Origin: a virus
Lineage: Duplodnaviria; Heunggongvirae; Uroviricota; Caudoviricetes
DNA: 21,813 nt
IMG/VR virus record: IMGVR_UViG_2563366926_000003
Direction: 5' to 3' (one strand)
Shown here: positions 1 through 21,813 of the stretch, piece after piece
Numbering within the stretch: position 1 is the stretch's first letter
Layout: each line of letters opens with the position of its first letter
Program-made: the position numbers and the translations under genes
Notes under the pieces: model-generated
Database searches by the model: none
Seen by the model: only the letters and a program-made list of their open reading frames with translations
Told to the model about the DNA's origin: nothing

Positions 1-1284
1 TTACTTCTTCGCCTCTGCAACCACTTTGCTACCCACGCCGCGGTTATTGTATTCCCACATGCGGTTGTAGTTAGTGTCATTCAGATTGCGCTGTACTTCG
101 TCGTTATCATCAACGTTGCCAGTATTACCCGCAAACGGACGATTGGAAATCACCGCATCGGCCCACGGTTTCGCCGTGTTAAAACCTTCGTTGATGGCGC
201 TATCACGGATCACTACCTGACCGTTGGTATTGGCATCAACATCCAGCGAGCGGCCCAGTTGCGCCACGCCATCCCCGGAAGCATTGAAACGGCTGTTTAC
301 GGCGAGGAAACCGTAGTAAATGTTGGACAGCGTAGCCGGTGCAAACACATACGCTTCTTGCTGGGTACGGGAGTTCACCACGCGGAATTCGGTGTTATCG
401 AACACCACTGCGCCGCGACCAGAAACGATATCCACATCCCCTTCAATGTAGCTGTTAGTCACCAGGGTACGCGGCTGACGGTTGCTTTCCAGACGGTTTT
501 GCACACCGCTGTTGGTGACAAAGAAGGTATTCTGGCGACCGAGAATATTGACGTTATTGATCTGCACTTTGTCGCCATCAGTACGCAGTGCCACCGCCGG
601 ATGGTTACCCGCATCTACGCTATCGCCCAGTGTGTTTTCGATGGTCAGGTTTTGCAGTTGCAGGCCATTGTTTTGTGACCAGAAGACCGCAGAACAGAGC
701 ACGCCAATGCTGTCGCTGCGTTTGCTCTGGCAGCTATCGTACATATACCACGCTGGTTTACCCGGCATATATTTGCCGCGTGGGTTGACGTCGTGACGCC
801 AGTCGGCTGGGCTCATGCCCCCATCAAGGGAAAGCCCAATTTTCACATCAATCGGTTTTTCACCTGTACCGTACAGAGTAATTCCACCCGGAGCGGCAGG
901 GACATACACCGTTCCCTGATACTCACCAGGCATCACGGCAATATACTGGCGCTTGTTGGTACGCTTGATAATTGCCGCATCTACCGCCGCCTGAATCGTG
1001 GTATGCGTTACACCTTGAGTACCCGCCGGGCCGACAACAAAGTCAGGTTGTGCAGGCAGGGTAATCGGGGAAGGATTCCACGCTGCAGCACCTGGTGTCA
1101 GGGATGCAAAATAGTGTTGAGCATCGAAATTCTGCGCTTCTTTTGCCGACAGAATCGGGCGAGAAGAGGTACCAGGCGCGGTTTGATCAGAAGGACGTTG
1201 ATCGGGCGGTGTTGAGCTACAGGCGGTCAGCGTCACGCCAAAAGCCAATGCCAGCGCCAGACGGGAAACTGAAAATGTGTTCAC
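1..1284 (-). CDS. ybhC: Host lipoprotein YbhC (pectinesterase-like / acyl-CoA thioesterase family), flanking lambda attB
   Basis: Full 427-aa ORF with a lipoprotein signal peptide (lipobox LTAC); recognised as E. coli YbhC, the gene next to the lambda attachment site. Stop codon at window position 1-3. Confidence 0.85.
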   Translation of the reverse strand: MNTFSVSRLALALAFGVTLTACSSTPPDQRPSDQTAPGTSSRPILSAKEAQNFDAQHYFASLTPGAAAWNPSPITLPAQPDFVVGPAGTQGVTHTTIQAAVDAAIIKRTNKRQYIAVMPGEYQGTVYVPAAPGGITLYGTGEKPIDVKIGLSLDGGMSPADWRHDVNPRGKYMPGKPAWYMYDSCQSKRSDSIGVLCSAVFWSQNNGLQLQNLTIENTLGDSVDAGNHPAVALRTDGDKVQINNVNILGRQNTFFVTNSGVQNRLESNRQPRTLVTNSYIEGDVDIVSGRGAVVFDNTEFRVVNSRTQQEAYVFAPATLSNIYYGFLAVNSRFNASGDGVAQLGRSLDVDANTNGQVVIRDSAINEGFNTAKPWADAVISNRPFAGNTGNVDDNDEVQRNLNDTNYNRMWEYNNRGVGSKVVAEAKK

Positions 1285-1418: not shown

Positions 1419-2489
1419 TTATTTGATTTCAATTTTGTCCCACTCCCTGCCTCTGTCATCACGATACTGTGATGCCATGGTGTCCGACTTATGCCCGAGA
1501 AGATGTTGAGCAAACTTATCGCTTATCTGCTTCTCATAGAGTCTTGCAGACAAACTGCGCAACTCGTGAAAGGTAGGCGGATCCCCTTCGAAGGAAAGAC
1601 CTGATGCTTTTCGTGCGCGCATAAAATACCTTGATACTGTGCCGGATGAAAGCGGTTCACGACGAGTAGATGCAATTATGGTTTCTCCGTCAAGAATCTC
1701 TTTGCATTTATCAAGTGTTTCCTTCATTGATATTCCGAGAGCATCAACATGCAATGCTGTTGGGATGGCAATTTTTACGCCTGTTTTGCTTTGCTCGACA
1801 TAAAGATATCCATCTACGATATCAGACCACTTCATTTCGCATAAATCACCAACTCGTTGCCCGGTAACAACAGCCAGTTCCATTGCAAGTCTGAGCCAAC
1901 ATGGTGATGATTCTGCTGCTTGATAAATTTTCAGGTATTCGTCAGCCGTAAGTCTTGATCTCCTTACCTCTGATTTTGCTGCGCGAGTGGCAGCGACAGG
2001 GTTTGTTGTTATATGGCCTTCAGCTATTGCCTCTCGGAATGCATCGCTCAGTGTTGATCTGATTAACTTGGCTGACGCCGCCTTGCCCTCGTCTATGTAT
2101 CCATTGAGCATTGCCGCAATTTCTTTTGTGGTGATGTCTTCAAGTGGAGCATCAGGCAGCCCCCTCCTTATTGCTTTAATTTTGCTCATGTAATTTATGA
2201 GTGTCTTCTGCTTGATTCCTCTGCTGGCCAGGATTTTTTCGTAGCGATCAAGCCATGAATGTAACGTAACGGAATTATCACTGTTGATTCTCGCTGTCAG
2301 AGGCTTGTGTTTGTGTCCTGAAAATAACTCAATGTTGGCCTGTATGGCTTCAGTGATTGCGATTCGCCTGTCTCTGCCTAATCCAAACTCTTTACCCGTC
2401 CTTGGGTCCCTGTAGCAGTAATATCCATTGTTTCTTATATAAAGGTTAGGGGGTAAATCCCGGCGCTCATGACTTCGCCTTCTTCCCAT
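1419..2489 (-). CDS. int: Lambda integrase (tyrosine recombinase)
   Basis: 356-aa ORF (MGRRRSHERRDLPPNLYIRNNGYYCYRDPRTGKEFGLGRDRR...); full length and sequence recognised as lambda Int; adjacent to attL and overlapping xis. Confidence 0.97.
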   Translation of the reverse strand: MGRRRSHERRDLPPNLYIRNNGYYCYRDPRTGKEFGLGRDRRIAITEAIQANIELFSGHKHKPLTARINSDNSVTLHSWLDRYEKILASRGIKQKTLINYMSKIKAIRRGLPDAPLEDITTKEIAAMLNGYIDEGKAASAKLIRSTLSDAFREAIAEGHITTNPVAATRAAKSEVRRSRLTADEYLKIYQAAESSPCWLRLAMELAVVTGQRVGDLCEMKWSDIVDGYLYVEQSKTGVKIAIPTALHVDALGISMKETLDKCKEILDGETIIASTRREPLSSGTVSRYFMRARKASGLSFEGDPPTFHELRSLSARLYEKQISDKFAQHLLGHKSDTMASQYRDDRGREWDKIEIK

Positions 2490-3134: not shown

Positions 3135-3737
3135 ATGAGCTATTTTCTGCGCAAAAAATGGATGGTAAATTTGTCCGGGTCAGGAAAAATTTTATGGGCG
3201 CTAAACATGAAAAAAGATTCGTATCCTTATTTGATTTGCATGACAGTTTCAGGGCTGATCTTTATTTTCCTTTTCTTCTGGTGGCGGGCAGATATCTACA
3301 GGGTCACGTTTCTTAATCAGAGTATATCCCACTATTACATTCTGTTTAGCATGGGAATAGCTTTTCTGTTATCTCTGTTTTGGGTTAAGAAGGGGATAGT
3401 AAAACAAAGAGGCTGGAAGAGTCTGTCAGCATACCTTAAGGTTTATGCAGGGATGTGCATATTTGCAGGATTTTTTCTGATTATACCCCTTACGACACTA
3501 ACTTATTTTTTGCCTGGAGAGACATCGTCTTATGTTGCACCGTATCGGTATACTTCCGGTAGTTCAAAAAGTTGTTCTGGAGCTGAGGTGGATGACCCCG
3601 ATCTACATGAGAATATTCGCATTTGCTATCCGTATGGCAATTATGAGTACGATAATATTATCTATGTTGAAAAGAAAATTAATATATTAGGTGCGGTAGT
3701 GACATATGCACAGACCGCGCGTGATGATACTGAATGA
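3135..3737 (+). CDS. Hypothetical integral membrane protein (about 3 predicted TM helices, Cys/Tyr-rich C-terminal tail); AT-rich cargo gene opposite to the pL operon
   Basis: 200-aa ORF with hydrophobic segments (LICMTVSGLIFIFLFFWW; ILFSMGIAFLLSLFWV; VYAGMCIFAGFFLIIPLTTLTYFL); AT-rich sequence with AT-rich codon choice; followed by a strong hairpin terminator. Start uncertain (alternative ATGs at 3161 and 3206; no strong SD for any). Confidence 0.55.
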   Translation: MSYFLRKKWMVNLSGSGKILWALNMKKDSYPYLICMTVSGLIFIFLFFWWRADIYRVTFLNQSISHYYILFSMGIAFLLSLFWVKKGIVKQRGWKSLSAYLKVYAGMCIFAGFFLIIPLTTLTYFLPGETSSYVAPYRYTSGSSKSCSGAEVDDPDLHENIRICYPYGNYEYDNIIYVEKKINILGAVVTYAQTARDDTE

Positions 3738-6885: not shown

Positions 6886-7018
6886 TCTTTGGGACTCCTG
6901 GCTGATTAAGTATGTCGATAAGGCGTTTCCATCCGTCACGTAATTTACGGGTAATTCGTTCAAGTAAAGATTCGGAAGGGCAGCCAGCAACAGGCCACCC
7001 TGCAATGGCATATTGCAT
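6854..7018 (-). CDS. cIII: Lambda CIII (FtsH inhibitor that stabilises CII)
   Basis: 54-aa frame [54 protein letters not shown], an internal start within the 78-aa track ORF; recognised as lambda CIII. Confidence 0.85.
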   Translation of the reverse strand: MQYAIAGWPVAGCPSESLLERITRKLRDGWKRLIDILNQPGVPKNGSNTYGYPD

Positions 7019-7090
7019 GGTGTGCTCCTTATTTATACATAACGAAAAACGCCTCGAGTGAAGCGTTATTGGTATACGGTAAAGCCGCAC

Positions 7091-9404: not shown

Positions 9405-10304
9405 TTATTTGATTATTTCTTTTATAAAGACTTCTTTCGGTTGGTATTTTTTATCTGATGATTTGAGCTGGTACGTTATTGTTATATCAGCACGTACAGC
9501 AAATTTACCTGCAAAATCTGATGGGTTTACGTTGGGGCCAAGAACCATATTTACTCTTCGATCTATTAATCCAGGGATAACAGCAGCCCAACCTTTCTCT
9601 GGATTGTCGAGGTCTAATGCACGGATTTCAACATCAACATCAAAATGATCCTGAGTATATGACTCTGGTGTGAAGACAACTTCAGTTGGGGCTTTTTTAA
9701 TGGTTTCAGCGGGAATGGTCACTGTACCACCCCCTGTACCTATGACCATCGTAGATCCTTCGTCTGCCCTAGCTGGGGCAAGCGTCTTAATGGAACTTTT
9801 GGCAAGAGTCTTCTTATTGGTTACCGTGCTTTCTATGATTGCTTGAAGACGGTCAGGTGAAATATTAGCCTCACCGGCACCAATATTGATGATTGTATTG
9901 TTATTTGCTTCAAAGTGGGAGGTGTTGCTTGGAGCCATAGCCTTAGTTGCTAGAACTAAGCCATATCCAACCAGACCAATAACAACAGCACCAACGAGAG
10001 CGTTTCTCATTTTCCCATTTCCGATCTTTGCATGAGCGCCAGCAAGAAACTTGTCCATTTCTTCTTGGCTACCAAAGAGGAGTTTAATAACAATATCTTC
10101 ATAAAGGCTTCCTGCTTCTAATCGCGCAACATGCACCGATATATCAAGGATATTAGCCCCTGTCAGTTCCTGCAAAACACCTTCTGATTGTTTTGCGATG
10201 GCCTCCCACCCTTGAAGGGAGGTAATCACATCTTTGATGCTTACAGGTTCTTTAGTTGAATAATATATGTTTTCGGTAAAGGTTAAAGATAATTCTTGGG
10301 ACAT
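9405..10304 (-). CDS. Hypothetical membrane-anchored protein (one central TM helix) in the rexAB position of the immunity region; candidate superinfection-exclusion / abortive-infection gene
   Basis: 299-aa ORF with a good RBS (gaggg, 6 nt upstream of the ATG), co-oriented with and 130 bp downstream of cI; central hydrophobic helix ALVGAVVIGLVGYGLVLATKAMA; visibly more AT-rich than the lambda backbone; no family recognised. Confidence 0.7.
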   Translation of the reverse strand: MSQELSLTFTENIYYSTKEPVSIKDVITSLQGWEAIAKQSEGVLQELTGANILDISVHVARLEAGSLYEDIVIKLLFGSQEEMDKFLAGAHAKIGNGKMRNALVGAVVIGLVGYGLVLATKAMAPSNTSHFEANNNTIINIGAGEANISPDRLQAIIESTVTNKKTLAKSSIKTLAPARADEGSTMVIGTGGGTVTIPAETIKKAPTEVVFTPESYTQDHFDVDVEIRALDLDNPEKGWAAVIPGLIDRRVNMVLGPNVNPSDFAGKFAVRADITITYQLKSSDKKYQPKEVFIKEIIK

Positions 10305-11885: not shown

Positions 11886-12785
11886 ATGACAAATACAGCA
11901 AAAATACTCAACTTCGGCAGAGGTAACTTTGCCGGACAGGAGCGTAATGTGGCAGATCTCGATGATGGTTACGCCAGACTATCAAATATGCTGCTTGAGG
12001 CTTATTCGGGCGCAGATCTGACCAAGCGACAGTTTAAAGTGCTGCTTGCCATTCTGCGTAAAACCTATGGGTGGAATAAACCAATGGACAGAATCACCGA
12101 TTCTCAACTTAGCGAGATTACAAAGTTACCTGTCAAACGGTGCAATGAAGCCAAGTTAGAACTCGTCAGAATGAATATTATCAAGCAGCAAGGCGGCATG
12201 TTTGGACCAAACAAAAACATCTCAGAATGGTGCATCCCTCAAAACGAGGGAAAATCCCCTAAAACGAGGGATAAAACATCCCTCAAATTGGGGGATTGCT
12301 ATCCCTCAAAACAGGGGGACACAAAAGACACTATTACAAAAGAAAAAAGAAAAGATTATTCGTCAGAGAATTCTGGCGAATCCTCTGACCAGCCAGAAAA
12401 CGACCTTTCTGTGGTGAAACCGGATGCTGCAATTCAGAGCGGCAGCAAGTGGGGGACAGCAGAAGACCTGACCGCCGCAGAGTGGATGTTTGACATGGTG
12501 AAGACCATCGCGCCATCAGCCAGAAAACCGAATTTTGCAGGGTGGGCTAACGATATCCGCCTGATGCGTGAACGTGACGGACGTAACCACCGCGACATGT
12601 GCGTGCTGTTCCGCTGGGCATGCCAGGACAACTTCTGGTCCGGTAACGTGCTGAGCCCGGCCAAACTCCGCGATAAGTGGACCCAACTCGAAATCAACCG
12701 TAACAAGCAACAGGCAGGCGTGACAGCCAGCAAACCAAAACTCGACCTGACAAACACAGACTGGATTTACGGGGTGGATCTATGA
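11886..12785 (+). CDS. O: Lambda replication initiator O
   Basis: 299-aa ORF (MTNTAKILNFGRGNFAGQERNVADLDDGYARLSNMLLEAYSGADLTKRQFKVLLAILRK...) recognised as lambda O; contains the ori iterons internally. Confidence 0.97.
   Translation: MTNTAKILNFGRGNFAGQERNVADLDDGYARLSNMLLEAYSGADLTKRQFKVLLAILRKTYGWNKPMDRITDSQLSEITKLPVKRCNEAKLELVRMNIIKQQGGMFGPNKNISEWCIPQNEGKSPKTRDKTSLKLGDCYPSKQGDTKDTITKEKRKDYSSENSGESSDQPENDLSVVKPDAAIQSGSKWGTAEDLTAAEWMFDMVKTIAPSARKPNFAGWANDIRLMRERDGRNHRDMCVLFRWACQDNFWSGNVLSPAKLRDKWTQLEINRNKQQAGVTASKPKLDLTNTDWIYGVDL
12234..12362. repeat. ori-lambda: four iterons followed by an AT-rich unwinding region
   Basis: Four directly repeated, internally palindromic units (atccctcaaaacgaggga; aaatcccctaaaacgaggga; ...atccctcaaattggggga; ...atccctcaaaacaggggga) followed by an A-rich tract (caaaagacactattacaaaagaaaaaagaaaag), inside O. 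Confidence 0.85.
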
Positions 12786-13483
12786 AAAACATCGCCGCAC
12801 AGATGGTTAACTTTGACCGTGAGCAGATGCGTCGGATCGCCAACAACATGCCGGAACAGTACGACGAAAAGCCGCAGGTACAGCAGGTAGCGCAGATCAT
12901 CAACGGTGTGTTCAGCCAGTTACTGGCAACTTTCCCGGCGAGCCTGGCTAACCGTGACCAGAACGAAGTGAACGAAATCCGTCGCCAGTGGGTTCTGGCT
13001 TTTCGGGAAAACGGGATCACCACGATGGAACAGGTTAACGCAGGAATGCGCGTAGCCCGTCGGCAGAATCGACCATTTCTGCCATCACCCGGGCAGTTTG
13101 TTGCATGGTGCCGGGAAGAAGCATCCGTTACCGCCGGACTGCCAAACGTCAGCGAGCTGGTTGATATGGTTTACGAGTATTGCCGGAAGCGAGGCCTGTA
13201 TCCGGATGCGGAGTCTTATCCGTGGAAATCAAACGCGCATTACTGGTTGGTTACCAACTTGTACCAGAACATGCGGGCCAATGCGCTGACTGACGCGGAA
13301 TTACGGCGCAAGGCTGCCGATGAACTGACCTGTATGACAGCGCGAATTAACCGTGGTGAGACGATACCTGAACCAGTAAAACAACTTCCTGTTATGGGCG
13401 GTAGACCTCTAAATCGTGCACAGGCTCTGGCGAAGATCGCAGAAATTAAAGCTAAGTTTGGACTGAAAGGATCGATGAAATAG
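12782..13483 (+). CDS. P: Lambda replication protein P (DnaB helicase loader)
   Basis: 233-aa ORF recognised as lambda P; start overlaps the O stop (ATGA-type coupling); the extreme C-terminus may differ from lambda where the cargo island begins. Confidence 0.93.
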   Translation: MKNIAAQMVNFDREQMRRIANNMPEQYDEKPQVQQVAQIINGVFSQLLATFPASLANRDQNEVNEIRRQWVLAFRENGITTMEQVNAGMRVARRQNRPFLPSPGQFVAWCREEASVTAGLPNVSELVDMVYEYCRKRGLYPDAESYPWKSNAHYWLVTNLYQNMRANALTDAELRRKAADELTCMTARINRGETIPEPVKQLPVMGGRPLNRAQALAKIAEIKAKFGLKGSMK

Positions 13484-13722
13484 AGCTAAAATATTAGCTT
13501 TAAAATAAAGTATATCTAGCGAATATAATCCAGGACTGGTTGTAATGCCCGCAATAATTGATTGCGTGACTAATAAAATTTTTCTTCCATTGTAATCATT
13601 TAACCATAAAGTTTATGTGGATATTTTATTTGTGTGTTGATTTTTTTGTAACGTTCTGTATATTTCGCACCTCTTGTCATACCAGTTATTTTTTTCATTA
13701 TATTCATAACGTTGATTGAACT

Positions 13723-16700
13723 ATGACCACTGTGAATAAAAAGTTAAAAAAAACTGCATCTGGCGCGATTACATGGTCAGTAATTGTTACCCAGATATTA
13801 TCTCCAGTTTCTCTTTCTTTGATTCCGGCAAACAGTTTTGCATCGTCTGATAATAAAGATGTTACGCAAATTTATGCTAGCGATGAGCGTGCAAATAAAG
13901 TGGCCTCATTTGCAGTAAGTGCAGGTCAGAGTCTGGCGAATAATAATGCAAGTAGTTTTGCTGTAAATACTTTATCAACTCAGGCGACAAAAGAGGTCGT
14001 CGATTGGTTGCAACAATATGGCAATGCGCGCATCAAGCTTAATGTCGATAATTCTTTTTCCTTGAAGGATTCATCATTCGACTTTTTATATCCATGGCTG
14101 GATACTCAGGATTATGTGCTATTCAGTCAAACATCACTACATCGTACTGATGACCGTAATCAGACCAATATTGGTTTGGGGATTCGTCATTTCACTCCTG
14201 ATAATGCAATGTTGGGTGCGAATGTTTTCTACGATTATGATTTAAGTCGCAGCCACTCTCGCGCAGGTTTTGGGGTTGAGTACTGGAGAGATTATTTCAG
14301 GCTTGGTGTAAATACCTATTTTGGTTTATCTGACTGGAAGGACAGTCGGGATATTGATGATTATCTGGAAAGACCCGCAAATGGCTGGGATTTTTCTGCT
14401 GAAGGATGGCTACCTGCTTATCCGCAATTAGGGGCATCTATTCAGTTTGAAAAATATTATGGTAAAAATGTCGGATTATTTGGAAGCGATAATCTGCAGG
14501 AAAACCCTTACGCAGTTACTGGGGGAATTTCTTATACACCAGTTCCTCTGATTAAGTTTTCTGCACAGCATAAGCAAGGACAGAGCAACGTTCACGATAC
14601 AACCTTTGGTGTTGAGTTTAATTACCGCCCAGGCGTTTCCCTTGCTGAACAGCTTAGCAGTGACAATGTTGCAGTTATGCGAGAAGTCCAGAACCGGCGT
14701 TATGATTTTGTTGAACGAAATAACAACATTGTTCTGGAGTACAAGAAGAAGCATGCACTGAAAATCAGCTTACCAGAGTCTGTTCAGGGGGATGGCGAAT
14801 CAATCATCCCTGTAACACTGACAATCAACAATGCCAGTGGTGGTATCAAGTCTGTACAGTGGAATGATAGTGTATTCACTGCGGCTGGCGGTAAGATCAG
14901 TGGAAATGGCACATCATGGCAGGTCACTTTACCGGCTTATAAAAGCGAAGGTGTAAATTCGTGGAATGTTGGAGCCACGGTCCAGGATAATAGAGGCAAC
15001 GTTTCCAACTATGCGGTGATGAATATTAGCGTTATCAATAGTGGTGTCTCGACAGCGGATTCTTCTTTTATGTTGGATGGAGATTCATCTCCGACGATCT
15101 CTGCTGATGGTCAATCCACTCATCCAATAGTATTAAGCCTGAAAGACAGTAACGGTAAGGCATTAACCGGACTGGCTGATGACATTGAAATGTCAGTGGA
15201 ATTTACTGCGGATAGCAATAGTGCTCGACAGCGTGAAACGGTAACTGCCCCGTCATTAGGCGCGGTAGAGGAAATCTCTGCTGGTGTATATCGCTCTGTT
15301 CTGACTGCTGGTTCGCAGGCTGGCACAGTACGTGTAACAGCAAAAGTTCAGGGAAAAACCTTTACTTTGAATATTAAGCAGGCAGCCGTTATTGATAGTG
15401 ATGTCTCGACAGCGGATTCTTCTTTTACGTTGGATGGTGATTCGTCTCCGACGATCTCTGCTGATGGTCAATCCACTCATCCAATAGTATTAAGCCTGAA
15501 AGACAGTAACGGTAAGGCATTAACCGGACTGGCTGATGACATTGAAATGTCAGTGGAATTTACTGCGGATAGCAATAGTGCTCGACAGCGTGAAACGGTA
15601 ACTGCCCCGTCATTAGGCGCGGTAGAGGAAATCTCTGCTGGTGTATATCGCTCTGTTCTGACTGCTGGTTCGCAGGCTGGTACGGTACGTGTAACTGCAA
15701 AAGTAATGGATAAAACATTTACTCTCAGTATTAAGCAAACAGCAGCAACAGAACCTGATTCTGAGGTCAGTGCTGTTTTAACCGCTGCACCAGCAGAACA
15801 GGTAGTTGGTTACAATATCAATCTACAACTGGCAGTGAAGGATTCACAAGGAAATGCAATCACTGGTGATAACACTCTGAGCTTTTATGCTCTTAACCAG
15901 GCAGAAGGAGTCGAGTTTGGGGCTGTAACGGAAAAAGACGGTGTCTATAGCGCGACAGTAACTTCAAAACGAGCTGGTAAGATTCGGATCGGTGTTAAAT
16001 CGGGTAGTCACAATTTCTCAGGTATTGAGAAAGAAATCTCCTTTATTGAAGATCGAACACAGTTCGCATTCTCTCGTATTGAAGCCAGTAAAAATAATGC
16101 ATTGGCTGACGGCAAACAACAGAATACGGTGACTTTAAGCCTTGCAGATCGTTTCGGCAATGTTGTGCCCGGTTATGCTGTTACGCTGTCCTTACCTGCG
16201 GGGGTAACTCAAGTTGGTGGTGAACATGCTGTGTCAACTGACGAAAACGGTAATGCTGTTTTTGCGTTAATAAGCTCCACTCCGGGTTCTTACGTGATTA
16301 AAGCTCATGCTGGTTCTCAGATGTCTACTGAGTTAACAGTAACCTTTGCATCAAATATGATCGGAGCTTCACTGTCACTGACGCCTGGAAACAGTAGCTT
16401 AATTTCCAATATTCCTGCTAATGGTAAGGATGCTGCGGTATTGAATGTGCAACTGACAAATACGAATGCGTCGGTCAATGGACAGAAGATTCAGCTCATC
16501 ACCTCATCTGAAAGATTGTCTGTACCGACAAATATCGTGACTGATTCAACAGGGCATGTTTCCGTACCACTTACAACGGTGAGAGCTGGTGAGTATACGG
16601 TGGCTGCACGAGTGACTGACGGTTCCCATAGTGTGGAGTCTGGCAGCGTTAAGTTAACTTTTGTACCAGATGCTGCTTCCGCAGAACTTACTATGAGTAC

Positions 16701-17631
16701 ATCAAAACAGCAGATTGTGGCCGATGGTAGTGAAAGTGCAACAGTGGACATTCAGTTGGTTGATGCCAATAACAATGCGTTTACAGGCGATGTGGATTTA
16801 ACGGTTACACCATCGACGGGAGCATCATTGACCAGTAGTAAACTGCAGTTGGATGCTCATGGACAGGCAACAACGCAGTTCACAGCATCGAAATCAGGCC
16901 AGTACACAATTCAGGCTGAGTATGTTCTAGATGGGAAACGTATAACCGCAAGCAAAAATATTGATGCCGTGACGGATGTGAAGGAGGCTGTGTTGGAGAT
17001 CACATCATCTGCATCTTCGGCTGTAGTGAGCGATACCAACAATCTGATATTTACGTTACTGTTGAAAAGTACGTCAGGCGAAGTATTAAGTGGTCGAGTA
17101 TTGAATATCAAGGCATCTGGGCCGTCCAAATATGGTGCGTTGGTGGTTGATAAAACCACTGTAACGACTGATGAGTATGGTCTGGCTACGGTAAGCGTAC
17201 ATGGTCGAACGGCTGGTTCGTATAAATTAACGGCGACCTTAGATGAACTTGGCAGTGATGTTAGTGAGGTGAAGTCATTCTCTCTGTATGCTGATGAGGC
17301 AAATGGAGTATTGACACTGCATAAAGATGGAGGCTATGACACAGATGATGGTACTCCAGTGGGGGTTTATGCCCGATTTGTTGACCATTTCGGCAATCCG
17401 TTATCTGGTACGGTTGAGTTTTCTGCTGGTAGTGAAGATAGTCCAAACTCTCAACGGGTTAAAATGGAGCCTGCTACAGTAACGTTACACTGGACAGGTA
17501 ATGCAGCCTCGGAGTTCAGCACCTATGAAAGCGGTTATCACTGGATTAAGGCCAAAATAACGAACAGCAAAAATACATATGAGAAAACAATAAGGACTTA
17601 TGTTGTAAAGCTCCCTGAAAAGGATAGTTAA
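13723..17631 (+). CDS. Inverse autotransporter adhesin of the intimin/invasin family (signal peptide, outer-membrane beta-barrel, tandem bacterial Ig-like domains)
   Basis: 1302-aa ORF; N-terminal signal-like segment; residues ~100-340 resemble the intimin/invasin beta-barrel translocator (GIRHFTPDN...GFGVEYWRDYFRLGVNTYFG...FGVEFNYRPGV); the C-terminal ~950 aa is a series of repeated ~100-120-aa Ig-like modules including two near-identical copies; preceded by ~240 bp of very AT-rich DNA and followed by a strong terminator. Confidence 0.85.
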   Translation: MTTVNKKLKKTASGAITWSVIVTQILSPVSLSLIPANSFASSDNKDVTQIYASDERANKVASFAVSAGQSLANNNASSFAVNTLSTQATKEVVDWLQQYGNARIKLNVDNSFSLKDSSFDFLYPWLDTQDYVLFSQTSLHRTDDRNQTNIGLGIRHFTPDNAMLGANVFYDYDLSRSHSRAGFGVEYWRDYFRLGVNTYFGLSDWKDSRDIDDYLERPANGWDFSAEGWLPAYPQLGASIQFEKYYGKNVGLFGSDNLQENPYAVTGGISYTPVPLIKFSAQHKQGQSNVHDTTFGVEFNYRPGVSLAEQLSSDNVAVMREVQNRRYDFVERNNNIVLEYKKKHALKISLPESVQGDGESIIPVTLTINNASGGIKSVQWNDSVFTAAGGKISGNGTSWQVTLPAYKSEGVNSWNVGATVQDNRGNVSNYAVMNISVINSGVSTADSSFMLDGDSSPTISADGQSTHPIVLSLKDSNGKALTGLADDIEMSVEFTADSNSARQRETVTAPSLGAVEEISAGVYRSVLTAGSQAGTVRVTAKVQGKTFTLNIKQAAVIDSDVSTADSSFTLDGDSSPTISADGQSTHPIVLSLKDSNGKALTGLADDIEMSVEFTADSNSARQRETVTAPSLGAVEEISAGVYRSVLTAGSQAGTVRVTAKVMDKTFTLSIKQTAATEPDSEVSAVLTAAPAEQVVGYNINLQLAVKDSQGNAITGDNTLSFYALNQAEGVEFGAVTEKDGVYSATVTSKRAGKIRIGVKSGSHNFSGIEKEISFIEDRTQFAFSRIEASKNNALADGKQQNTVTLSLADRFGNVVPGYAVTLSLPAGVTQVGGEHAVSTDENGNAVFALISSTPGSYVIKAHAGSQMSTELTVTFASNMIGASLSLTPGNSSLISNIPANGKDAAVLNVQLTNTNASVNGQKIQLITSSERLSVPTNIVTDSTGHVSVPLTTVRAGEYTVAARVTDGSHSVESGSVKLTFVPDAASAELTMSTSKQQIVADGSESATVDIQLVDANNNAFTGDVDLTVTPSTGASLTSSKLQLDAHGQATTQFTASKSGQYTIQAEYVLDGKRITASKNIDAVTDVKEAVLEITSSASSAVVSDTNNLIFTLLLKSTSGEVLSGRVLNIKASGPSKYGALVVDKTTVTTDEYGLATVSVHGRTAGSYKLTATLDELGSDVSEVKSFSLYADEANGVLTLHKDGGYDTDDGTPVGVYARFVDHFGNPLSGTVEFSAGSEDSPNSQRVKMEPATVTLHWTGNAASEFSTYESGYHWIKAKITNSKNTYEKTIRTYVVKLPEKDS
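15030..15743 (+). repeat. Near-identical 357-bp (119-codon) in-frame tandem duplication inside the adhesin gene
   Basis: The unit starting gtctcgacagcggattcttctttt occurs at 15046 and again at 15403 (period 357 bp); the central ~280 bp differ at only a handful of positions; encodes VSTADSSF.LDGDSSPTISADGQSTHPIVLSLKDSNGKALTGLADDIEMSVEFTADSNSARQRETVTAPSLGAVEEISAGVYRSVLTAGSQAGTVRVTAKV twice. Confidence 0.92.
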
Positions 17632-17643
17632 CAAAACAGAATA

Positions 17644-17670
17644 GGGAGGGCTAAGCCCTCCCACTTTTTA
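17644..17670 (+). terminator. Rho-independent terminator of the adhesin gene
   Basis: Perfect 8-bp GC-rich stem gggagggc / gccctccc with loop taa, followed by acttttta. Confidence 0.8.
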
Positions 17671-18153
17671 ATTGAGACGGACTGTTTCTTAAATTCACTT
17701 ACGTTAGATATGAACTGGTTATTTTTTATAACAATAAAAGACTTTTGATTTTTGAATATCAGTAAGTAATAATGATTTACGTCGACAGACTGAACATCTG
17801 TTGGTGACTTCTGCGCTAAACGGGGACGTTTATGCGCACATACAATCTAAACTCTCTTCTCTCTTCACAGATGCAGAAATGCACCTGCGATTCTTTGCAT
17901 CCAACGTTTGACCTCTGCGGAGGTGAAGCGTGAACCTCCCACAAGATGGCATCAAATTACATCGCGGTAACTTCACCGCTATCGGTCGGCAGATCCAGCC
18001 TTATCTGGAGGACGGCAAATGCTTTCGCATGGTGCTTAAACCGTGGCGCGAGAGACGCAGTCTAGACTGGCCCCCTGAATCTCCAGACAACCAGTATCAC
18101 TTAAATAAGTGATAGTCTTAATACTAGTTTTTAGACTAGTCATTGGAGAACAG

Positions 18154-18519
18154 ATGATTGATGTCTTAGGGCCGGAGAAACGCAGACGGCGTACCACACA
18201 GGAAAAGATCGCAATTGTTCAGCAGAGCTTTGAACCGGGGATGACGGTCTCCCTCGTTGCCCGGCAACATGGTGTAGCAGCCAGCCAGTTATTTCTCTGG
18301 CGTAAGCAATACCAGGAAGGAAGTCTTACTGCTGTCGCCGCCGGAGAACAGGTTGTTCCTGCCTCTGAACTTGCTGCCGCCATGAAGCAGATTAAAGAAC
18401 TCCAGCGCCTGCTCGGCAAGAAAACGATGGAAAATGAACTCCTCAAAGAAGCCGTTGAATATGGACGGGCAAAAAAGTGGATAGCGCACGCGCCCTTATT
18501 GCCCGGGGATGGGGAGTAA
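18154..18519 (+). CDS. insC: IS2 OrfA (InsC) transposase regulatory/DNA-binding subunit
   Basis: 121-aa frame [56 protein letters not shown]... with RBS ggagaa; recognised as IS2 InsC. Confidence 0.93.
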
Positions 18520-19382
18520 GCTTAGTCAGCCGTTGTCTCCGGGTGTCGCGTGCGCAGTTGCACGTCATTCTCAGACGAACCGATGACTGGATGGATGGCC
18601 GCCGCAGTCGTCACACTGATGATACGGATGTGCTTCTCCGTATACACCATGTTATCGGAGAGCTGCCCACGTATGGTTATCGTCGGGTATGGGCGCTGCT
18701 TCGCAGACAGGCAGAACTTGATGGTATGCCTGCGATCAATGCCAAACGTGTTTACCGGATCATGCGCCAGAATGCGCTGTTGCTTGAGCGAAAACCTGCT
18801 GTACCGCCATCGAAACGGGCACATACAGGCAGAGTGGCCGTGAAAGAAAGCAATCAGCGATGGTGCTCTGACGGGTTCGAGTTCTGCTGTGATAACGGAG
18901 AGAGACTGCGTGTCACGTTCGCGCTGGACTGCTGTGATCGTGAGGCACTGCACTGGGCGGTCACTACCGGCGGCTTCAACAGTGAAACAGTACAGGACGT
19001 CATGCTGGGAGCGGTGGAACGCCGCTTCGGCAACGATCTTCCGTCGTCTCCACTGGAGTGGCTGACGGATAATGGTTCATGCTACCGGGCTAATGAAACA
19101 CGCCAGTTCGCCCGGATGTTGGGACTTGAACCGAAGAACACGGCGGTGCGGAGTCCGGAGAGTAACGGAATAGCAGAGAGCTTCGTGAAAACGATAAAGC
19201 GTGACTACATCAGTATCATGCCCAAACCAGACGGGTTAACGGCAGCAAAGAACCTTGCAGAGGCGTTCGAGCATTATAACGAATGGCATCCGCATAGTGC
19301 GCTGGGTTATCGCTCGCCACGGGAATATCTGCGGCAGCGGGCTTGTAATGGGTTAAGTGATAACAGATGTCTGGAAATATAG
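18477..19382 (+). CDS. insD: IS2 OrfB (InsD) transposase catalytic domain (DDE); expressed as an OrfAB fusion by -1 frameshifting
   Basis: 301-aa ORF recognised as IS2 InsD; slippery A6G motif (aaaaaag, 18470-18476) at the orfA/orfB overlap. Confidence 0.93.
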
Positions 19383-19720
19383 GGGCAAATCCACAGTCTT
19401 TCCCAGAATGCACTCAGCCACATGTGGTACAGCGAAATCAGTGAATACCTCATCAGCAGGGGTAAAACGTTCGCCACTCCAGCTTGGGTAAAAGATGCTC
19501 TCAAACACACATATCTCGGTTATGAAACCAAAGACCTGGTTGATGTCGTAACCGGTGATATCACCACTATCCAGTCGTTACGCCATACCTCCGACCTTGA
19601 TACCGGAGAGATGTATGTCTTCCTGTGTAAGGTTGAAGCCTGGGCGATGAATATTGGCTGCCACCTGACTATTCCGCAGAGCTGCGAGTTCCAGCTGCTG
19701 CGTGATAAGCAGGAGGCGTA

Positions 19721-19891
19721 ATGGCTACACCGCTTATTCGTGTCATGAACGGACACATCTACAAAGTACCAAATCGTCGTAAGCGTAGGCCTGAGCTGAA
19801 ACCATCCGAAATACCAACACTGCTCGGATATACCGCCAGCCTGGTTGATAAAAAATGGTTGCGACTGGCAGCAAGGAGGAATCATGGCTGA
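19721..19891 (+). CDS. ninE: NinE-family small protein
   Basis: 56-aa [59 protein letters not shown]; RBS aggagg; ATG overlaps the ninB stop (TAATG); basic NinE-like motif pattern; gene order as in DLP12 (ybcN-ninE-ybcO-rusA-ylcG-Q). Confidence 0.6.
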   Translation: MATPLIRVMNGHIYKVPNRRKRRPELKPSEIPTLLGYTASLVDKKWLRLAARRNHG

Positions 19892-21288: not shown

Positions 21289-21813
21289 TTATTGTTTAAC
21301 CCATAATAATTCATTGACATTGAATCCCAACTTTTGAGCGGTTCGCACATAGTCTGCTTTTACTTTATCTGGAATAGTTGGGGTCCTTGCCAGAATCCAT
21401 AGGTATTCTCTGTTCGGACCACTGACAAGAGCATACTTATACTCATCATCCAGTTTGATTACATTATAGCCACCATAGAAGGGGCCAAAAAACGAAACCT
21501 TCAACGCTGCAGTTTTAGTATCTCCAGTAAAGTATGCTTTACCTTCGCTCTCGCTCCATTTATTTTTCGTTGGATCGTATCCACGGTTAAGTACACGAAT
21601 CCCTCCGTCGTTCCGTTTTCCATAAGTAGCGCTGACCTGTTCCAGACCACGTTCGAACCGGTTCTCGAGGCGAGCTATTTCATACCACTTTCCGAGGTAG
21701 CGGTTGGCGTCAAAATTTGTAATCGGCTGCACACCTTTAGGTGGTGTCGGGGCCTTACATGCTATAAGAGTGAAAGAGAGTGCAATGCCAGTCAACACAG
21801 GCCATAACTTCAT
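21289..21813 (-). CDS. Bacterial lipocalin (Blc-like) outer-membrane lipoprotein; cargo gene convergent with the late operon
   Basis: 174-aa ORF with lipoprotein signal peptide and lipobox (MKLWPVLTGIALSFTLIAC); lipocalin motifs (NFDANRYLGKWYEIARLENRFERG ... SFFGPFYGGYNVIKLDDEYKYALVSGPNREYLWILARTPT) recalled as matching E. coli Blc; start codon at the last base of the window. Confidence 0.85.
   Translation of the reverse strand: MKLWPVLTGIALSFTLIACKAPTPPKGVQPITNFDANRYLGKWYEIARLENRFERGLEQVSATYGKRNDGGIRVLNRGYDPTKNKWSESEGKAYFTGDTKTAALKVSFFGPFYGGYNVIKLDDEYKYALVSGPNREYLWILARTPTIPDKVKADYVRTAQKLGFNVNELLWVKQ

Follow-up and report, generated by a model that had tools for sequence, protein, structure and literature searches.

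Does the long reading frame found next to the replication gene P of a lambda-like Escherichia coli prophage encode a genuine surface adhesin and, if so, where did it come from and whom does it serve? The question was raised by IMG/VR virus record IMGVR_UViG_2563366926_000003, a stretch of 21,813 nucleotides that was analyzed at its full length and is referred to here as the window. A preliminary description, made from the letters alone, had proposed that an intimin/invasin-family adhesin occupies a 4.2-kb cargo island between P and ninB. The analysis showed that the adhesin gene is real, intact, under purifying selection and widespread as prophage cargo. Its product appears to be an inverse autotransporter (IAT) of a distinct FdeC-like subfamily, and the locus in which it resides behaves as a cargo slot that other lambdoid phages fill with other genes. 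The features of the locus are collected in Table 1.

The gene is a single intact open reading frame (ORF) at positions 13723-17631 on the + strand. It has 1302 codons and zero internal stops, while the other two forward frames contain 84 and 132 stops. The predicted protein is identical to RefSeq WP_001550848.1, whose product label is just "inverse autotransporter beta domain-containing protein", and the same protein was found on 476 contigs (entry P0011). The 3909-bp gene is also present, identical, in many complete E. coli genomes. By inspection, the N-terminus has the traits of a long signal peptide, with a basic KKLKK n-region, a long hydrophobic core and an SFA/SS cleavage motif at residue 40. 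Pfam family IAT_beta (PF11924) matched aa 69-334 with an E value of 1.4e-100, covering profile positions 16-279 of 279, and this barrel also matched the solved structures of Yersinia invasin (4e1t, E 1e-73) and intimin (4e1s, E 1e-63). The first immunoglobulin (Ig)-like domain after the barrel resembles intimin PDB entry 6tqd, which we take to be the D00-D0 region. Tandem Repeats Finder (TRF) identified in the window a repeat with a period of 357, 2.0 copies and 95% match. It is followed by six more modules (aa 683-770, 787-873, 891-976, 992-1080, 1094-1186 and 1206-1290), the last one being a divergent tip. Over the passenger, Pfam returned Big_1 (5.8e-54, five stretches) and Invasin_D3 (1.7e-53, six stretches). 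When the six distal modules were searched one by one, Big_1 was above the cut-off at 74.6, 45.5 and 50.5 bits, and two modules were marginally below it. A profile built from a single Big_1 module found eight modules within residues 453-1290, which together with the D00-like domain make a total of nine Ig-like domains. The later passenger modules match fragments of invasin (1cwv) and FdeC (4e9l, 1.5e-17) in the PDB. No LysM and no C-type lectin domain were detected by Pfam, either with the whole protein or domain by domain. Since the N-terminal PF11924 barrel, the signal peptide and the tandem Ig passenger are the sequence hallmarks of type Ve secretion, the protein can be assigned by homology to the intimin/invasin superfamily as an inverse autotransporter. 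The 1302-aa ORF behind about 240 bp of AT-rich DNA (239 bp at 28% GC), the signal peptide, the barrel and the repeated Ig-like modules were all as the preliminary description had read them. Its family assignment stood at the level of the superfamily, to which the barrel and the Ig modules belong, and had to be narrowed, because the protein is not an intimin or an invasin in the strict sense.

To place the protein among its relatives, direct alignment was run against FdeC of strain SMS-3-5, and IatC, SinH, YchO and intimin were judged by their NCBIfam scores. FdeC gave the top-scoring alignment among the named relatives that could be tested, with 32% identity in a colinear arrangement over 1262 aa that spans the signal peptide, the barrel and the post-barrel NNNIVLEY. 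The NCBIfam equivalog scores were 397 bits for IatC (NF040978, cut-off 2400) and 335 bits for intimin (NF033627, cut-off 1400), and those for SinH (NF033423, 320 bits against 999) and YchO/YchP (NF007556, 272 bits against 508) were both below cut-off as well. A search of 1.84 billion cluster representatives with the N-terminal 445 residues returned the protein's own cluster (98% identity), all the rest being at most 50% identical. The best foreign cluster (P0122) has 48% identity and aligns in the FdeC register, and the nearest 50%-identity clusters carry generic names and come from Salmonella, Lelliottia, Pantoea and Enterobacter. The separate 50%-identity cluster, the sub-cut-off scores and the colinear alignment with FdeC together argue for a distinct FdeC-like subfamily of inverse autotransporters. 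Four narrower identities were considered and set aside. Intimin was rejected on its score, the missing lectin tip and the absence of a locus of enterocyte effacement (LEE)/Tir context. IatC/Air was rejected on its score and because it is a chromosomal protein of 2934 aa. Membership of the FdeC/EaeH orthologue group was rejected on the low identity (32%), the different locus and the separate 50%-identity cluster. SinH and YchO/YchP membership fell below the curated cut-offs. The comparison with chromosomal IATs that had been suggested at the outset therefore leaves FdeC as the closest of those tested, at a modest 32%, with intimin far below its cut-off.

The gene is not a rarity. It was matched in 561 of the 5426 complete E. 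coli genomes (about 10%), and the carriers include strains of the pandemic clone sequence type (ST) 131 (the reference strain EC958 and another one) and ST38; the island is thus common. Two alleles exist, about 94% identical over their full length. The window allele is found in 53 records at at least 99% identity and has no neighboring cargo gene. Next to the commoner allele, on the opposite strand and convergent with it, lies a 1044-bp gene that codes for a 346-aa alpha/beta hydrolase (Pfam BD-FAE, 5.6e-45, and Abhydrolase_3; loci L002 11996-13039, L003 12946-13989 and L008 20420-21463). In that island type the hydrolase and adhesin genes share a bidirectional hairpin, the hydrolase is missing from the window, and the homology between the two island types stops right past the terminator, at 17670. 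The order P, adhesin, optional hydrolase, ybcN is constant in prophages located at ybhC, at icd (strains PAR and EC958) and in the other ST131 strain, prophages that differ in their repressors and Q genes, and the order P, IAT, ybcN was found in 37 of 37 IMG/VR loci. The icd prophage of EC958 has P, a 1421-aa IAT, the hydrolase and ybcN; its allele is about 94% identical to that of the window and contains three copies of the module. Size variants of 1183, 1302, 1421 and 1540 aa correspond to one, two, three and four copies of the 119-aa module, all in frame. Draft contigs often break in the 357-bp tandem module (IMG/VR loci L035-L046). Because of these breaks, module counts taken from draft genomes cannot be relied on, and caution is needed with variants that read mapping reports in this region (PMC8541385). 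In strain PAR the prophage is wrecked, with int and O frameshifted, insertion sequence (IS) elements inserted and late genes deleted, and the adhesin gene is intact. A remnant of the icd type was also observed on the 195-kb plasmid p23AR0151A (L009), where the hydrolase gene is present and the adhesin gene, here with a single module, is intact; the AAA-ATPase and HNH genes upstream of it are the same as at the PAR chromosomal locus.

Comparison of the two alleles showed a dS of 0.18 and a ratio of nonsynonymous to synonymous substitutions (dN/dS) of 0.15 overall, with 0.02 in the barrel and 0.08-0.41 in the passenger modules. The proximal 100 bp or so before the ATG are nearly invariant between the alleles and more conserved than synonymous sites. 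When one genome per species (GTDB) was searched, E. albertii alone had a close relative. The copy in E. albertii NBRC 107761 (L047, 5929-6711) is 80% identical in amino acids over the first 237 aa and 77% in nucleotides, up to the end of the contig, and the nucleotide homology begins at 13654, 70 bp before the ATG. This copy directly follows a gene for an aldehyde dehydrogenase and an operon for an ABC transporter, with no phage genes nearby. When the E. albertii fragment was used as the query of a protein search, short or partial proteins were all that came back, and no full-length orthologue. These data hint that the phage cargo was captured from a chromosomal gene, and the E. albertii relative may represent its source.

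The limits of the island were defined with the deposited phages PhiR26_1 and PhiR30_1, which have P and ybcN in common with the window and no adhesin gene. In the blastn map their homology ends at 13471 and restarts between 17740 and 17803. The left breakpoint lies within the last four codons of P (13472-13483); at this junction the sequence is TCGATGAAATAG in the window and GCAACTGTATGA in the phages, in which the P stop overlaps the ren start. By these alignments the variable segment extends from 13472 to about 17802. Of the limits proposed earlier, 13484 and 17672, the latter corresponds to the terminator end, and the comparison with related phages displaces both. Of PhiR26_1 and PhiR30_1, one fills the slot with ren, PD-lambda-1 and Rha and the other with ren, an acyltransferase gene and a lipoprotein gene; no ren is present within the window. 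The same junction was probed in the complete E. coli genomes: P is joined to ren in 2830 of 5426 (200-bp probe) and to the island in 438. The idea that the cargo takes the place of ren was thereby supported. Because sibling phages hold varied cargo there, and given these junction counts, the interval from P to ybcN has the appearance of a regular cargo slot, with the adhesin island as one common occupant, replacing ren. The adhesin gene is carried just after P, as had been stated, and the gene on the far side of the island is not ninB but ybcN, which is split by IS2 and whose product is weakly NinB-like (20.6 bits versus a cut-off of 23.8). The preliminary description had also called the position unusual; the position is a regular slot, and what is unusual is the type of cargo. 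A tblastn search of 50,697 deposited phage records found no phage genome with the adhesin gene or any IAT barrel, the two matches to the barrel being one to a contig of a Salmonella genome and one to a 2-kb fragment.

The island differs from its surroundings in composition, with 28% GC upstream of the gene, 44% in the ORF, 53% in P and 49-54% in the flanks. The strong GC hairpin noted earlier after the gene was recovered at 17644-17662; 7 of the 8 bp in its stem are G-C pairs, the loop has 3 nt, and the energy was predicted at -17.2 kcal/mol. Morons, as Hendrix and colleagues use the word, are extra phage genes between conserved ones, with a promoter and terminator of their own, an odd composition and expression from the repressed prophage. 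Some relatives have the adhesin gene and others lack it; a terminator of its own follows it, and its composition is distinct from the backbone. Upstream of it there are sigma-70-like matches at 13500-13529, 13637-13664 and 13674-13701, and no + strand terminator was predicted between P and the adhesin start. Control by H-NS is plausible, the entire basis for the idea being the AT-richness of the region and the analogy with FdeC. A paper on the regulation of FdeC by H-NS is cited in PMC6714894. The same source implicates LeuO in the control of iatB: overexpression of leuO increased the iatB transcript, and the protein was still not detected (PMC6714894).

On this evidence we consider it probable that the island is a one-gene moron in the early rightward operon of a lambda-like prophage, that it encodes a conditionally expressed type Ve adhesin or biofilm factor of the lysogen, and that it is moved by recombination. 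The product would be exported by Sec through its long signal peptide. The N-terminal 12-stranded barrel would then be inserted in the outer membrane by the beta-barrel assembly machinery (BAM), and the C-terminal passenger would be threaded through it to form a stalk of nine Ig-like modules with the divergent tip outermost. By analogy with FdeC, YeeJ, IatB, IatC and IatD, the protein displayed in this way may serve the lysogen in adhesion or biofilm formation, which would amount to lysogenic conversion. The pR promoter is off in a lysogen; transcription in the lysogen must therefore start in the gene's own AT-rich, conserved upstream region, and such expression is probably conditional. The hairpin would end the lysogen transcript, and N-modified polymerase could read through it in lytic growth. 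The unit would pass from one lambdoid prophage to another, possibly carried by phage, when they recombine within P and ybcN, the conserved genes on either side of it, and the stalk changes its length by gain or loss of the 119-aa module. A more ambitious version, which we offer tentatively, is that the protein constitutes an eighth E. coli IAT class and the sole phage-transmissible one. The captured chromosomal Escherichia gene would now be spread by the phages as a lysogenic-conversion adhesin through ST131 and ST38, two major extraintestinal lineages, with a stalk tuned by one to four modules, and would outlive the phage as a domesticated host gene.

Several observations weigh against this explanation. 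Sigma-70-like sites do not occur more often upstream of the gene than they do after shuffling of the sequence, and the ribosome-binding site before the ATG, as read from the sequence, looks weak. The high-affinity H-NS motif TCGATAAATT, allowing up to 2 mismatches, had 21 matches in the window against 27.7 expected, one of them at the island edge, a count that lends no support to H-NS binding. The tip module (1201-1302), which would be expected to determine specificity, has no binding fold recognizable with Pfam (Big_1 at E 0.058) and had zero matches to PDB sequences up to E 1. An alignment-free AlphaFold2 model of the last 218 aa was unusable, with a mean predicted local distance difference test (pLDDT) of 43.7; the retrievable homologues are all about 94% identical or above. 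In this strain the expression of late genes may be crippled by the IS2 copy, which lies between the island and Q and may be polar on their activation. Release of infectious particles that carry the adhesin gene is at most a possibility, since no deposited phage genome contains it.

Other explanations were weighed with the same data. The protein could serve the phage, by lytic read-through from pR or as a shield on the lysogen surface, acting in superinfection exclusion, receptor masking or lysogen clumping for phage spread. The co-orientation of the gene within the pR operon, with no + strand terminator predicted after P, is in keeping with this idea, and so is the company it keeps: in sibling phages the slot is home to PD-lambda-1, a defence gene, and to Ren, whose annotation reads "exclusion protein Ren", and the prophage of the window also encodes SieB. 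However, the adhesin had no match among the PADLOC defence models (nor did the hydrolase of the commoner type or the neighboring hypothetical proteins), its architecture is that of host-binding and biofilm adhesins, and it has its own terminator and conserved upstream region. The gene is also intact in a remnant that can neither replicate nor lyse, which points to a benefit for the bacterium, and we regard a phage-serving role as unlikely. The gene might instead be a silent hitch-hiker, captured once from the chromosome, kept off by nucleoid proteins and spread through recombination-prone flanks with no present function. The AT-rich DNA upstream would fit, as would the fact that E. coli IATs are often poorly detectable in the laboratory, IatB being an example (PMC6714894), and that the cargo takes about 9% of a size-limited lambda-like genome. 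Strong purifying selection, particularly in the barrel, speaks against it, together with the identical protein on hundreds of contigs and the survival of the gene in decayed prophages. From a cos-packaged genome that measures about 50 kb, a useless 4.3-kb load should moreover vanish quickly. We give this possibility the same low standing.

There remains the concern that the reading frame is an artefact of assembly over near-identical repeats, or a decaying pseudogene. The 357-bp tandem repeat invites it, and many draft contigs do break there. Yet the frame is open, the dN/dS is low, the size variants are exact multiples of 119 aa and in frame, and identity extends over the 3909 bp in many complete genomes. 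The agreement of complete genomes with the window removes the assembly concern, and fusion across repeats, the outcome that the preliminary description had named as fatal to its proposal, is excluded; the chance that the gene is spurious or decaying is negligible. The lysogen-serving moron is the explanation that we retain as probable.

The prophage itself lies at the classical lambda attachment site, with ybhC at 1-1284 (-) and the integrase gene at 1419-2489 (-). An identical locus is found in strain S1-JOR-02-A, in a lambda-like prophage adjoining ybhC. The order there is int, xis, exo-bet-gam, kil, cIII, N, sieB, repressor, cro-like, cII, O and P, and, from the cargo onward, adhesin, a small ORF, the IS2-split ybcN, ninE, ybcO, rusA, ylcG, Q, lysis genes, iss and head genes. 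In a sibling genome (L049) the far prophage end adjoins ybhB-bioA, and an IS2-free sibling has the whole prophage between ybhB and ybhC, about 50 kb, with complete lambda-like late genes, lom and iss. The conserved leader before ybcN holds an annotated 33-codon ORF at 17832-17933. IS2 is flanked by a 5-bp target duplication, CAGTC, at 18058-18062 and 19394-19398. Among complete genomes this insertion was seen in the record of one strain alone, and it is also present on a 9-kb IMG/VR contig (L010); it brings the prophage to about 52 kb. Several neighboring genes were observed in passing. A 299-aa ORF at 9405-10304 (-), which directly precedes the repressor gene and takes the place that rexAB has in lambda, had no significant Pfam and no PADLOC match and may be expressed in the lysogen. 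A 200-aa ORF at 3135-3737 (+), between xis and the exo-xis region and on the opposite strand to its neighbors, had no match in Pfam or PADLOC either. Right after Q, on the opposite strand, a gene of the lipocalin family (Blc-like) at 21289-21813 (-) was identified (Pfam Lipocalin_2, 7e-44); it looks like another moron, and beyond it the full prophage has a gene of the ybgA family and a frameshifted helix-turn-helix gene. Rfam found nothing in the island, its sole match in the window being the lambda cIII thermoregulator at 6973-7031 (-), with 88.5 bits.

Table 1. Features of the adhesin island and its flanks (window coordinates).
Feature	Position	Strand	Basis
Replication gene P, lambda-type, left anchor	12782-13483	+	RefSeq annotation of identical locus; blastn map; junction alignment
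AT-rich upstream region, presumed promoter/regulatory	13484-13722	+	Composition (239 bp, 28% GC)
Adhesin gene, putative inverse autotransporter, 1302 aa	13723-17631	+	ORF list, Pfam, NCBIfam, PDB matches, RefSeq
Predicted Sec signal peptide, long, aa 1-40	13723-13842	+	Read off translation; aligns with FdeC N-terminus
IAT beta-barrel translocator, aa 69-334	13927-14724	+	Pfam PF11924; PDB 4e1t, 4e1s
First Ig-like domain, barrel-proximal, D00-like, aa 342-442	14746-15048	+	Intimin 6tqd, E 1.7e-9; weak Pfam Big_13
Tandem 357-bp (119-aa) Ig-like module, Invasin_D3 type, two copies	15030-15737	+	TRF; Pfam on single unit
Six more Ig-like modules	15769-17592	+	Self-derived profile; per-domain Pfam
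Intrinsic terminator, GGGAGGGC-TAA-GCCCTCCC plus T-run	17644-17670	+, predicted on both strands	Terminator scan
AT-rich spacer (28% GC), right end of variable segment	17671-17802		Composition; comparisons with other island type
Conserved leader and 5' part of ybcN (17930-18062), right anchor	17803-18062	+	Comparison; RefSeq
IS2, 1331 bp, inside ybcN, not part of the island	18063-19393	+	Absent from sibling genomes
ybcN 3' part	19399-19721	+	Joined to 5' part gives an intact 151-aa protein

Where E. coli can settle depends on its adhesins, and FdeC is a vaccine candidate. If the prophage adhesin is expressed and functional, one phage event could be enough for important clinical lineages to acquire or lose colonization or biofilm traits, an FdeC-related surface antigen would vary in presence and in length, and the island would be the sole clear case of a type Ve substrate as phage cargo. 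If it is silent, it would still be a defined example of a large host gene captured and kept in a lambdoid cargo slot. Its interest comes from the vehicle, the prevalence in clinical lineages and the absence from the published catalogue. Literature searches on WP_001550848, on prophage and inverse autotransporter, and on FdeC and prophage retrieved nothing specific besides one 2021 paper that names a gene of this kind in passing, among putative mutations from short-read mapping to a reference (PMC8541385). In all probability that gene is the adhesin gene in its ST131 allele, a link made from the position and description of an old locus tag. In the literature searched, this passing mention is the only one, and the gene is without characterization.

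The IATs of E. coli were catalogued by Goh et al. in 2019 as seven groups at fixed chromosomal sites, and EC958 was scored for fdeC, iatA and iatB alone (PMC6714894). EC958 nonetheless carries the prophage adhesin gene, which is absent from that catalogue. The catalogued IATs are surface-exposed and promote biofilm (PMC6714894), roles in adhesion or biofilm are described for FdeC, YeeJ, IatB, IatC and IatD (PMC6714894, PMC7312957), and FdeC is reported to bind host cells and extracellular matrix molecules and to promote autoaggregation and biofilm (PMC7312957). The prophage adhesin shares with FdeC/EaeH the order of signal peptide, barrel, D00-like domain and chain of Big_1-type Ig domains, the lack of LysM and of a lectin tip, and the strongest conservation from barrel to post-barrel. 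FdeC, however, has 1417 aa and occupies a conserved chromosomal site, whereas the 1302-aa adhesin is located in a prophage and includes a 119-aa module in variable number. With intimin of the LEE and Yersinia invasin it has in common the secretion class, the barrel fold, the D00-like domain (6tqd) and Ig modules (invasin 1cwv), but it has no C-type lectin tip and lies outside the LEE. IatC (Air/EaeX), IatD, YeeJ, IatB/SinH and IatA/YchO also combine a PF11924 barrel with Ig-like passengers; YeeJ, IatC and IatD possess LysM and lectin domains, and the prophage adhesin neither. Among phage genes, the nearest parallels are the lambda morons lom and bor/iss, which are lambdoid cargo that alters the lysogen surface, and the same prophage family carries lom and iss. 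Those genes are 0.3-0.6 kb long and belong to the late region, whereas the gene described here has 3.9 kb, codes for a putative type Ve protein and is inserted in the early operon, after P.

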